NCBI GenBank assembly: GCA_963731265.1
Contig: CAVSUE010000002.1
Coordinates: 256,001-320,000, forward strand
Direction: 5' to 3'
DNA: 64,000 nt
Source: an uncultured Verrucomicrobiae bacterium
GTDB taxonomy: Bacteria > Chlamydiota > Chlamydiia > Chlamydiales > Rhabdochlamydiaceae
Every line of letters starts with the position of its first letter. The stretch's first letter is position 1. Positions 37,070 through 38,335 of the stretch are shown here, piece after piece. Both the position numbers and the translations under genes were made by a program. The notes under the pieces are model-generated. The model worked only from the letters and a program-made list of their open reading frames with translations, ran no database searches and was not told where the DNA came from.

Positions 37070-37737
37070 ATGATAAGAGGAAAATTTATGGTTATAGGAT
37101 CAAAGGTGAAAGCGATTTGGCTAAAAATCTTATGCTCTTGTATCTTTCTTATGACGATTCCTTGTTTCTCCGACTCTGAGAGTAAAGATCTGCGGAGCCG
37201 AGCTTCGGATGGGAAAATAGAATTTTTCTATATCTATCATAACCCTGAAACAATTCTCGATATCATCAAAGAAACGGCGATCCTACAGGAGTTCGATAGT
37301 CGGTATTGTTTCTTCTCAGCCCTATTTAAAACCTATCCTGAGCAGGGGCTTCAATGGATAAAGGACGCTCAAGTTAAGTTGGAGGATCATAGTCCTTTGA
37401 TTTCTGCTTTATGGGTGGGGGGATTGGAAAGTGAAGCAATCTATAGAGCTCAAAAAGCAGGTTGGCCAGCTAAGAACCTCCTGGAGCTTGCAAATCATCC
37501 AAAATCGGCTCTTGATTTTCTGCGGAACAAACCGGATATTTGCCTTGTATGAGCTGTTATTTCTTTGTGACCGGCGATACAAGGTACAATGATAAAATCA
37601 TCGACGTTTTAGCCTTGACCCCAGAGAAAGTACGTCCATCCTTTAACCTACACGAGTTAAAAGAGGATGCAAAATACCATTTAATGCTGCTCGTATCAAA
37701 TTTGAAATCTCGATTTGATCGCTATCAACAAGAATAA
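37070..37737 (+). pseudogene. Frameshifted, probably 3'-truncated hypothetical exported protein
   Basis: ORF 37070-37552 continues in another frame as 37540-37737 (FFVTGDTRYNDKIIDVL); the tail runs into the antisense of the mccB fragment. Confidence 0.55.
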
Positions 37738-38164
37738 ATTTTTTCACACCAGCTGTGGCTAGTAAAACACCGACAACATTTCCTATTCCTCCACAGCCGA
37801 CTATAGCAACAATCTTGTTTGAAATGCTTTTCTGAACTTGTTCGATTTCTGCGCCTGATAACGAATAAAAAAGTAGAGATCTGCTATGCCTATCTTCGCG
37901 ATCATACGATCCTTCCGGCATTAGAAATTGCCTTAATAAAATGTCCAAAGTATCTTCAACAGTTCTTGTATTATGTCCAGCGTCACTCAAAAAAGAGGAA
38001 AGTTCCTCAATGCGTCGGGGTTTTTTCATAAAAGTAGCGGCATCGAGAAGGCAATTTTGTGTTTGTTTTCCTTGAATGATACGTCTAAGAGATCCAAATC
38101 CAAAGTGGAGCGCTCCATCTAAGAAGCCAACTCGCACATAGGGAGCCAATCTAAATTTCTTCAT
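37643..38164 (-). pseudogene. mccB: Truncated MccB-family ThiF adenylyltransferase (microcin C maturation enzyme)
   Basis: LAPYVRV..G.GS, RHSRSLLFYSLSGA, VAIVGCGGIGNVVGVLLATAGV..FILVDSDQIEISNL mirror E. coli MccB; similarity ends near 37690 with the C-terminal half missing. Confidence 0.8.
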
Positions 38165-38184
38165 ATTTGACCTTTTCAATATAA

Positions 38185-38219
38185 TGCCTCGGAGATCATG
38201 TTACAGAACCCCGAGGACA
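38185..38219 (-). terminator. Intergenic hairpin between the mccA-like and mccB-like genes
   Basis: CCTCGGGGTTC...GATCTCCGAGG stem immediately after the precursor stop codon. Confidence 0.6.
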
Positions 38220-38224
38220 AGAAA

Positions 38225-38248
38225 CTAGTTTGTGATAATTATGTTCAT
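38225..38248 (-). CDS. mccA: Microcin C-like heptapeptide precursor MNIIITN
   Basis: AGGAG + 7 nt + ATG AAC ATA ATT ATC ACA AAC TAG; 7 aa, C-terminal Asn, directly upstream of an MccB homologue. Confidence 0.85.
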   Translation of the reverse strand: MNIIITN

Positions 38249-38306
38249 CTGCTTTCTCCTTTGTAATCGTTTCTAAAAACTTGTTGGTTCTTCCAACAAG
38301 AGGCCT

Positions 38307-38335
38307 AAAATATTCATTTTAATCATTCGCGTCAA
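38307..38335 (-). promoter_or_regulatory. Putative sigma70 promoter of the mccAB-like unit
   Basis: TTGACG-17 nt-TATTTT on the minus strand, followed by hairpin CTTGTTGG-AAGAA-CCAACAAG. Confidence 0.5.

Follow-up and report, generated by a model that had tools for sequence, protein, structure and literature searches.

A Probable Stump of a Microcin C-Type Operon in a Chlamydial Genome

The segment 38342-37696 on the minus strand of the window—the whole 64-kb stretch of DNA analysed here—holds the start of an MccA/MccB-type locus and is most probably (about 85%) what a deletion left of a peptide-nucleotide antibiotic operon of the microcin C type, namely its 5' stump. Judging from its gene content, this copy is probably a dead remnant, unable to make or export an antibiotic. 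The novelty lies in the peptide variant MNIIITN and in the evidence of repeated decay of the operon in chlamydiae. The genome is chlamydial, as the earlier note had proposed: the best named relatives of its enolase belong to Parachlamydiales, Rhabdochlamydiaceae, and Chlamydiae MAGs, and the window ORF, too, has chlamydial proteins as its closest MccB relatives.

Elements of the Locus

All the elements lie on the minus strand, and the promoter boxes, Shine-Dalgarno (SD) sequence, MNIIITN frame, hairpin, and ThiF-family ORF were each found where the earlier note had placed them:

38307..38335, minus strand: putative sigma-70-like promoter (Pmcc-like), TTGACG (38335-38330), 17-nt spacer, TATTTT (38312-38307); 9 of 12 matches
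38275..38300, minus strand: 5'-leader hairpin between promoter and SD, CTTGTTGG-AAGAA-CCAACAAG, then TTTTT; terminator-like match
38256..38260, minus strand: SD sequence AGGAG, 7 nt ahead of the mccA ATG
38225..38248, minus strand: mccA, seven-codon precursor ORF for MNIIITN plus stop, ATG AAC ATA ATT ATC ACA AAC TAG; chlamydial relatives have peptides in the same place
38185..38219, minus strand: mccA-mccB intergenic hairpin, terminator-like attenuator; MFE -17.3 kcal/mol, z = -4.31
37643..38164, minus strand: ThiF-family ORF, ATG at 38164 to stop at 37643, 173 aa
37691..38164, minus strand: mccB remnant within this ORF, codons 1-158 of ~351; N-terminal peptide-clamp/RRE and first part of the ThiF Rossmann fold, GCGGIGN...DSDQIEISNL
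37643..37690, minus strand: 15 non-homologous codons plus stop, read-through past the deletion junction (breakpoint about 37696)

The promoter match taken alone is no better than chance, with three promoter-like sites in 37400-38750 compared with 1.7 +/- 1.5 in shuffled sequences. The -35 element TTGAC is present at the aligned position in the related loci L003, L001, and L005, and the DNA homology to the operon of locus L002 starts at 38342. The leader hairpin folds with z = -2.29 (6 of 200 shuffles are equally good), and its inverted repeat is kept in L002 and L003. By analogy, it may act like the upstream mcc hairpin described for E. coli (PMC4231749). The search of the whole 64-kb window against Rfam at the gathering threshold returned a single tRNA and nothing else, and at E <= 1 over 37400-38750 there were only two sub-threshold chance matches, so that neither the leader nor its GC-rich neighbour falls into a known RNA family. 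This GC-rich stretch of 326 nt has no plasmid match, and its fold is only marginally better than those of shuffled sequences.

The Precursor Peptide and the Intergenic Hairpin

Evidence for a genuine precursor gene comes from its conservation ahead of homologues of the ThiF-family ORF, a pattern that the earlier note had named as a check. The search was for an exact frame of ATG, five codons, AAY, and stop, lying no more than 350 nt upstream of the homologue, and it covered the 44 loci that have 100 nt or more of sequence on that side. Such an M-x5-N frame is present in 35 of the 44, all but one of these 35 (34) with an SD-like motif, whereas control windows from the same loci hold it in 19 of 2735 cases (0.7%) and never with an SD-like motif. 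This conservation is far beyond chance. In an obligate intracellular phylum, a 24-base gene that gene callers overlook is the signpost to a real family of antibiotic operons. At the mccA position, the chlamydial relatives have MNTISKN, MNTITKN, MNTITTN, and MNIITMN. The locus set also takes in the validated producers Lactobacillus johnsonii (MHRIMKN) and Bartonella washoeensis (MDHIGFN), as given in Table 1 of PMC4010828.

The hairpin between mccA and mccB is predicted to be stable in a 47-nt frame (z = -4.31, 0 of 200 shuffles folding as well) and is less distinct in a 96-nt frame, with a z of only -1.29 and 19 of 200 shuffles as good. A hairpin occurs at the same position in all six chlamydial loci folded (z -2.5 to -7.5), and 4 of the 11 consensus pairs show compensatory changes. 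It can be regarded as the counterpart of the mccA-mccB terminator of E. coli and H. pylori. However, terminator activity of the window hairpin is not assured, because it has no clean U-run and is followed by GCAUUAUAUUG.

Kinship of the Truncated Enzyme to MccB

The retained 158 residues have the make-up of an MccB-type ThiF/E1-like enzyme with an N-terminal clamp (RRE). A phmmer search of the window ORF against PDB ranks MccB (5.6e-16) ahead of ThiF (2.3e-5) and PaaA (5.3e-5). The full-length family profile separates them further, with 5.1e-100 for MccB (positions 4-347 against chain residues 5-351) versus 1.2e-24 for MoeB, 1.5e-23 for ThiF, and 2.1e-23 for PaaA, and its N-terminal 100 residues match MccB only. 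The remnant shares 79% identity over 158 residues with the full-length protein P0001. Pfam recognizes ThiF in the window ORF at 1e-14, over residues 108-160 only.

The AlphaFold model of the fragment has a mean pLDDT of 77.5, with residues 1-90 at 85-98, the partial Rossmann fold (residues 100-160) at 48-79, and the tail (residues 155-173) below 50. When this model is searched with Foldseek, MccB is matched with an E of 5e-10 and a TMq of 0.66, and PaaA at 3.4e-3; among the matches listed, ranks 1 to 15 are all MccB and the first non-MccB structure stands at rank 25. The kinship to MccB claimed in the earlier note, including the N-terminal peptide-clamp region, is thereby borne out by sequence, profile, and fold. 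Neither of the two outcomes that the note had named as refuting its reading came about: the best hits are not MoeB, ThiF, or PaaA, and close homologues do have an Asn-terminal micro-ORF ahead of them. Membership in the PaaA/pantocin type is rejected by these same three comparisons and by the precursor, which is 7 aa long and ends in Asn. [quoted passage not shown]

Intact Operons in Related Chlamydiae

In related chlamydiae of the Parachlamydiaceae type, the intact operon runs from promoter and leader hairpin through mccA, the terminator-like hairpin, and mccB to an MccC-like MFS exporter, then a GNAT acetyltransferase (similar to the MccE C-terminal domain), and often an MccF-like S66 peptidase. 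Exporter and immunity genes are found where the earlier note had advised looking for them. Pfam assigns ORFs that follow mccB in L002 and L003 to MFS, GNAT, and S66, and tblastn over the six core-clade loci (L001-L006) detects MFS in 6/6, GNAT in 5/6 (L001-L005), and S66 at full length in L003, L004, and L006 and as a fragment in L002. The MFS gene lies directly 3' of mccB in L001-L006 and in L009.

By homology to E. coli microcin C, the hairpin past mccA in such an intact system would stop most transcripts, yielding a short, abundant mccA RNA. The N-terminal RRE domain of MccB would clamp the formyl-heptapeptide and the enzyme, with ATP, would convert its C-terminal Asn into an isoasparaginyl-AMP phosphoramidate, which the MFS pump would export. 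Target bacteria would take up the product via a peptide permease and trim the peptide; the aspartyl-adenylate mimic set free in this way is non-hydrolysable and would block aspartyl-tRNA synthetase, while the GNAT protein and the S66 peptidase would protect the producer. A host or organellar AspRS as target, as the earlier note suggested, would be a speculative extension of this scheme. In the genome of the window, the deletion took all that follows codon 158 of mccB, namely the remaining adenylation domain with its four near-invariant cysteines and, past it, exporter and immunity genes. The locus may still be transcribed and its MNIIITN frame translated.

Judging from the sequences, these operons decay repeatedly and independently in chlamydiae. 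In addition to the window copy, the mccB gene of Parachlamydiaceae bacterium HS-T3 (L003; P0174) has an in-frame stop, P0177, P0180, and P0185 end in non-homologous tails, and P0179 is fused to a GNAT domain. The genomic context of the operon differs in each chlamydia, with the L002 copy adjoining integrase and toxin-antitoxin genes, and the flanking genes of the window show no synteny with 47 related loci. This mobility, together with the repeated decay, suggests that endosymbionts acquire the operon and lose it again quickly. The fragment gives no sign of a plasmid-borne chlamydial clade in PLSDB, where its sole match is a ThiF-family gene of Yersinia pseudotuberculosis with 36% identity. 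The chlamydial genes fall in an MccB clade whose members come largely from lineages that are intracellular, associated with amoebae, or predatory (Legionellaceae, Holosporaceae, Francisellaceae, Bdellovibrionota, Bartonella).

Truncation and Alternative Explanations

The mccB copy is truncated, as the earlier note had recognized. Of the ~351 aa of the family, tblastn aligns residues 1-158 alone (38164-37691), homology in the DNA alignment breaks off after ...TCAAATTTGA..CG, and blastn homology stops at 37696-37701 in six loci. Neither the remaining half of mccB nor the downstream genes are present in the 64-kb window by tblastn and blastn, nor does the whole window hold a second mccB or, at E <= 0.1, any MFS, GNAT, or S66 homologue. 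The adenylation domain of the window ORF is consequently incomplete, with part of the ThiF core, the four conserved Cys, and the C-terminal part gone, and the near-invariant family residues C256, C259, C341, and C344, which presumably bind zinc, fall in the missing part. Beyond the truncation, the one defect that the earlier note recorded, the window locus has no adjacent export pump (MccC, MFS, or other) and no self-immunity gene (MccE-CTD GNAT, MccF S66, or other), the latter being an accessory and not a universal component. A second intact mcc copy, or MccB, exporter, or immunity genes acting in trans, could lie outside the 64 kb.

The frame of the stump is open throughout its 158 codons, and it carries no private change at the 58 columns that are invariant across the other 16 core-clade proteins. 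A stump without degenerative substitutions points to a loss that was probably recent. However, the open frame and the clade-invariant residues are equally predicted by retained function. There is a small chance that the stump has acquired a new role, with the retained promoter, mccA, and N-terminal clamp all being expressed: the clamp might bind and sequester the microcin C-type peptides of relatives as an immunity decoy or sensor, or an MccB from another part of the genome might act on MNIIITN in trans. Such a role would also fit the confident prediction that the N-terminal domain folds alone and the intact state of promoter, SD, and both hairpins relative to the homologues. On the other hand, the protein collection has the exact 173-aa form just once (one member, one contig), and the breakpoints of the other short forms differ, as in random decay. 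The low confidence of the partial Rossmann fold and tail and the lack of a second mccB in the 64 kb also speak against it.

Slightly less probable still is an assembly or binning artefact, in which the join at about 37696 would be chimeric and the organism's mccABC(E)(F) operon would in reality be intact. The homology does end abruptly with no frameshift or IS scar, the stump is free of decay, and none of the 47 related loci has the window's flanking genes. Against this, the protein sits on a contig of 339,044 nt, the junction has no N run or repeat, and the same gene is truncated independently in other chlamydial assemblies, including that of the cultured HS-T3, which argues that real decay is common.

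Finally, the reading of the ORF as an ordinary ThiF/MoeB adenylyltransferase or PaaA-type enzyme with a seven-codon ORF arising by chance has next to no probability and is already refuted: NCBIfam does return no MccB model and names ThiF and MoeB as the best families (1.6e-12 and weaker, residues 88-163 only), but these score at most 47.5 bits against cut-offs of 152-449 bits, MccB leads by ~10 orders of magnitude when the fragment is searched and by ~75 with the family profile, the fold search ranks the families likewise, the N-terminal 100 residues fit MccB alone, and the micro-ORF recurs at a rate that the controls do not approach.

Relation to Known Systems

Taken as the stump of a microcin C-type operon, the locus is best compared with the microcin C7/C51 operon of E. 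coli (mccABCDE-F; MccB structures 3h5n and 6om4). Both have a strong SD ahead of a seven-codon precursor with Asn at its end, and a hairpin between mccA and mccB. The N-terminal clamp/RRE and ThiF/E1 core of E. coli MccB align end to end with the chlamydial family, and the chlamydial relatives have the MFS exporter, GNAT (MccE-CTD-like), and S66 (MccF-like) genes in common with E. coli. Despite these similarities, the peptide sequences are unrelated (MNIIITN and MRTGNAN), and the window locus is chromosomal and truncated past codon 158, with all the downstream genes gone. In addition, Pfam finds only MFS, GNAT, and S66 downstream of chlamydial mccB, with no match to MccD or the MccE N-terminal domain in this general survey. 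The chlamydial product would therefore lack the aminopropyl group and be a plain peptidyl-nucleotide.

The earlier note knew of no described chlamydial example, a belief that does not hold, since chlamydial MccB/MccA pairs already stand in the supplementary tables of two articles. Table S1 of Travin, Severinov & Dubiley 2021 (PMC8323819) lists MccB CDZ81242.1 and MccA MNTITKN of Rubidus massiliensis. The MNTITKN entry is labelled 'This study', and the legend of Fig. S1 refers to in vitro nucleotidylation of selected MccA peptides by the cognate MccB, so that one chlamydial member has apparently been validated in vitro. For a product with an N-P bond that inhibits AspRS once processed, this entry and legend are the sole pointer from the chlamydial clade. 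This cluster comes from the same phylum as the window, and its peptide is identical to that of L002. A comparison by peptide places MNIIITN two of seven positions away from it; the window copy is broken, and its peptide is more hydrophobic, with Ile-Ile-Ile replacing Thr-Ile-Thr.

Two chlamydial MccB homologues of the seven-residue clade appear in Table S1 of Zukher et al. 2019 (PMC6495379), one from Parachlamydiaceae bacterium HS-T3 and the other from Chlamydiales bacterium SCGC AG-110-P3 (MDTVTTN). In that table HS-T3 is left out of the tree and has no peptide listed. It corresponds to locus L003, with MNTISKN, mccB, MFS, GNAT, and S66; its mccB is broken by an in-frame stop, whereas that of the window is broken by a deletion.

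Bartonella washoeensis, Lactobacillus johnsonii, and Helicobacter pylori have minimal mccABC clusters (Bantysh et al. 2014, PMC4010828) that likewise consist of a heptapeptide precursor ending in Asn together with MccB, and the same homologue search returned L031 and L044, with MDHIGFN and MHRIMKN upstream. However, these clusters sit on distant branches of the MccB tree and have no adjoining GNAT/S66 immunity genes, both by tblastn and according to the discussion in PMC4010828. PaaA (pantocin A), ThiF, and MoeB share the ThiF/E1-like Rossmann core, and PaaA also has an N-terminal RRE. Nevertheless, ThiF and MoeB are devoid of the N-terminal clamp, the residue that PaaA modifies lies inside a longer peptide (PMC4010828, section 9), and all three give far weaker matches than MccB.

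A broader and rather doubtful interpretation is that microcin C-type peptide-nucleotide antibiotics are weapons among bacteria sharing a protist host, and that the window records a very recent loss. It draws on the lineages that make up the MccB clade, the shifting genomic contexts, and the repeated breakage described above. If this were true, the retained clamp domain and mccA could serve as a decoy or sensor against the compounds of relatives. The pattern of rapid gain and loss poses a testable ecological question on warfare inside amoebae. The practical value is modest, given that the class is well understood, the chlamydial members are tabulated, and the window copy is probably dead. Nonetheless, the natural set of chlamydial carrier peptides (MNIIITN, MNTISKN, MNTITKN, MNTITTN, MNIITMN, and METEIGN) could inform which uptake systems such compounds exploit.

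Layout of the locus

As the earlier note had read it, the window comes from a chlamydial genome and carries a microcin C-type locus, with a gene of the MccB family, a conserved precursor and a hairpin; this locus is the stump of an inactivated operon. The promoter, Shine-Dalgarno (SD) motif, MNIIITN ORF, hairpin and ThiF ORF that had been pointed out are all found on the minus strand within 37400-38600. Except where indicated, the following features are read from the sequence:

38335-38330 and 38312-38307, minus: promoter-like site, TTGACG-17 nt-TATTTT
38300-38275, minus: second inverted repeat followed by T5, in the 5' leader, kept in the chlamydial loci L002 and L003 (leader alignment)
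38260-38256, minus: SD motif AGGAG, 7 bases before the ATG
38248-38225, minus: mccA, ATG AAC ATA ATT ATC ACA AAC TAG, encoding MNIIITN-stop
38219-38185, minus: inverted repeat/hairpin between mccA and mccB (sequence and folding)
38164 (ATG) to 37643 (stop), minus: ThiF-family ORF of 173 aa

The promoter match by itself is not above chance (3 sites vs 1.7 +/- 1.5 in shuffles). The hairpin at 38219-38185 folds at -17.3 kcal/mol in a 47-nt frame (z = -4.31, 0/200 shuffles as good) and does not stand out when the frame is widened to 96 nt (z = -1.29, 19/200 shuffles). Each of the six chlamydial loci that were folded has such a structure 3' of mccA (z = -4.31, -5.28, -2.54, -7.48, -5.61, and -2.74), with four of its 11 consensus pairs retaining pairing via changes on both sides, and the ATG-AAY...AAY-stop frame is conserved in the leader alignment. 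It occupies the same position as the intrinsic terminator in the mcc operons of E. coli and H. pylori, which, according to PMC4231749, gives rise to an abundant short mccA RNA. By analogy, the leader repeat at 38300-38275 may be the counterpart of the E. coli upstream hairpin modulating the terminator.

In the interval from the enolase stop to the mcc promoter there is a segment of 326 nt (38343-38668) with ~63% G+C, vs ~40% around it, placed exactly at the onset of homology to the L002 operon. It has neither an Rfam nor a plasmid match, and its fold reaches z = -1.9.

Identity of the enzyme

In Pfam, the window ORF matches ThiF (1e-14) at residues 108-160 only, which correspond to the first 50-odd of the model's 238 positions, and an NCBIfam search returned only ThiF/MoeB names, all sub-threshold. 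A PDB sequence search ranks E. coli MccB first, with three sequences at 5.6e-16 to 1.3e-15, ahead of ThiF (2.3e-5) and PaaA (5.3e-5). A search for longer proteins yielded 52 relatives; almost every one is about 351 aa long, identity reaches 79%, and the few named ones are from Waddliaceae, Chlamydiales, and one 'Verrucomicrobia' MAG. The profile A1 of this full-length family, built from 23 of them, aligns with MccB along its entire length (positions 4-347 to chain residues 5-351, E 5.1e-100), vs 1.2e-24 for MoeB, 1.5e-23 for ThiF, and 2.1e-23 for PaaA. The AlphaFold model of the fragment (mean pLDDT 77.5; 85-98 for residues 1-90, <50 for the tail 155-173) has MccB chains as its top PDB folds (E 5e-10, TMq 0.66); among the matches listed, folds other than MccB begin with TruD (2.8e-3) and PaaA (3.4e-3). 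Since the sequence, profile and fold searches all favour MccB, the N-terminal clamp follows this enzyme, and so does the GCGGIG core, as the earlier note had proposed.

Conservation of the precursor peptide

The search for related loci gave 47 genomic loci, 44 of them with at least 100 nt of sequence before the inferred start. In 35 of the 44, a seven-codon ORF of the exact form ATG...AAY-stop is present within 350 nt upstream, and in 34 it has an SD-like motif; among control windows from both strands of the same loci, 19/2735 hold such an ORF, none with an SD-like motif. The 35 loci include those encoding MHRIMKN (L. johnsonii) and MDHIGFN (B. washoeensis), listed as validated peptides in Table 1 of PMC4010828. 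The seven-codon ORF was not found at nine loci (L025, L029, L030, L033, L036, L037, L040, L041, and L046), five of which are partial matches with an uncertain start; L030, L037, and L041 have Asn-terminal ORFs of 8 or 12 residues in its place. The chlamydial mccA peptides are MNTISKN (L001, L003), MNTITKN (L002), MNTITTN (L005), MNIITMN (L006), MNCELRN (L009, 242 nt upstream), and METEIGN (L016); L004 lacks sequence on its upstream side.

Loss of the operon in the window

In the relatives, the ORFs 3' of mccB encode an MFS transporter and an Acetyltransf_3 GNAT protein (Pfam), with an S66 LD-carboxypeptidase in L003. By tblastn, the MFS gene is present in L001-L006 and L009, GNAT in L001-L005, and S66 in L003, L004, and L006, with only a fragment in L002. 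The window has no match to any of the three at E <= 0.1. DNA homology to L002 spans only 38342-37698, and that to five other loci ends at 37696-37701. Similarity drops abruptly past codon 158; the frame then runs on for 15 unrelated codons to a stop, so that the greater part of the adenylation domain is lost, and with it four near-invariant cysteines. By homology to E. coli microcin C, the functional system would work through adenylation, export, uptake, AspRS inhibition and immunity; a host or organellar target, which had also been raised, is pure speculation.

On one flank of the window locus are a sulfatase-like gene and two unknowns; on the opposite flank are the genes for enolase, RsgA and a SpoU methylase. 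None of these genes has a counterpart in any of the 47 related loci, and therefore the operon occupies different places in different genomes. In L002, a Parachlamydiaceae MAG, the intact operon has an AbiEii/AbiEi pair as its neighbour at one end, and at the other a truncated fragment of S66 and two of integrase (3872-5334 and 8817-10293), which suggests a mobile island. Two ORFs of 359 and 160 aa (35956-37552) converge on the stump in the window, with no Pfam family and no counterpart in related loci.

The 173-aa form is a singleton in the protein collection (1 member, one 339,044-nt contig). Of 154 comparable columns, 58 do not vary among the other 16 core-clade proteins, and the window copy has 0 private changes at these, so the deletion looks recent; the nearest intact proteins likewise have no private changes there. 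Decay of mccB is recurrent among the relatives. In the cultured strain HS-T3 (L003, 6001-7056), an in-frame stop after codon 214 (6643-6645) splits the gene into 214 aa and 133 aa, with the MFS, GNAT, and S66 genes 3' of it intact. Similarly, the related proteins P0177, P0180, and P0185 have non-homologous tails, and P0179 (228 aa) joins an MccB N-terminus, 56% identical over 187 residues to the full-length relative P0001, to GNAT Pfam domains, which looks like a deletion in another genome that took the 3' half of mccB and mccC. Other short forms have homologous ends and come from short contigs; they may be artefacts of the contig ends.

Phylogeny and previous records

For the MccB tree, 39 of the 47 loci were used, eight partial matches being left out; L003, L037, L041, and L043 were then dropped (ORF from the match start <280 aa), giving 35 rows. 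Six of the seven chlamydial-labelled rows form one clade (support 96/87), which includes the Verrucomicrobia-titled L004, while the Anoxychlamydiales copy L016 is placed outside. The sister of this clade is a Myxococcota-labelled MAG (99/98), with Legionellaceae and gammaproteobacterial MAGs nearby; the tree is midpoint-rooted only, and therefore no donor is nameable. The window fragment, absent from the tree, is assigned to the core clade by its identity (74.7% to L002, 79% to P0001). The genome is chlamydial: its enolase, whose best match is 94% identical, has its named relatives, at 70-78% identity, among Parachlamydiales, Rhabdochlamydiaceae, Chlamydiae, and 'Verrucomicrobia' MAGs.

Many of the MccB relatives are from intracellular, amoeba-associated or predatory bacteria (L010, L014, L017, L022, L035, and L025-L033, from Legionellaceae, Holosporaceae, Francisellaceae, Bdellovibrionota, and Bartonella), which could be due to ecology or to sampling. 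PMC5751055 reports that mccF has been transferred laterally between symbionts of amoebae.

Contrary to the earlier note, which was aware of no described chlamydial example, chlamydial members of the operon are already catalogued in supplementary Tables S1 of PMC6495379 (Parachlamydiaceae bacterium HS-T3; Chlamydiales bacterium SCGC AG-110-P3, peptide MDTVTTN) and PMC8323819 (Rubidus massiliensis, a member of Chlamydiota, MccB CDZ81242.1, MccA MNTITKN, marked 'This study'). One of them appears to have been biochemically tested, the Fig. S1 legend of PMC8323819 describing the nucleotidylation of selected peptides in vitro. 'MNII' occurs in neither supplement. No main text found by full-text searches treats a chlamydial mcc cluster: PMC4010828, PMC6495379, PMC12250964, and PMC8323819 have no word with the stem 'chlamyd' in their main texts, the Rubidus genome paper does not mention microcin, and PMC9666466 has generic 'RiPP-like' clusters only.

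Other repeats in the window

A small dispersed repeat family with the core CTCGACTTTGCAACTTTT... occurs in direct and inverted orientation at 3012-3147, 30087-30273, 33888-33948, and 47991-48044, one pair adjoining the tRNA gene at 30013-30086, and looks like a miniature mobile element. A tandem array with a 120-nt period (58827-59726; at least 6 overlapping register copies, 64-82% identity) is probably a gene for a repeat-containing protein. Finally, a 52-nt repeat at 5677-5728 and 56437-56488, 96% identical and containing the G+C-rich palindrome CCCGGCCCTTAAGGGCCGGG, is possibly a shared terminator.
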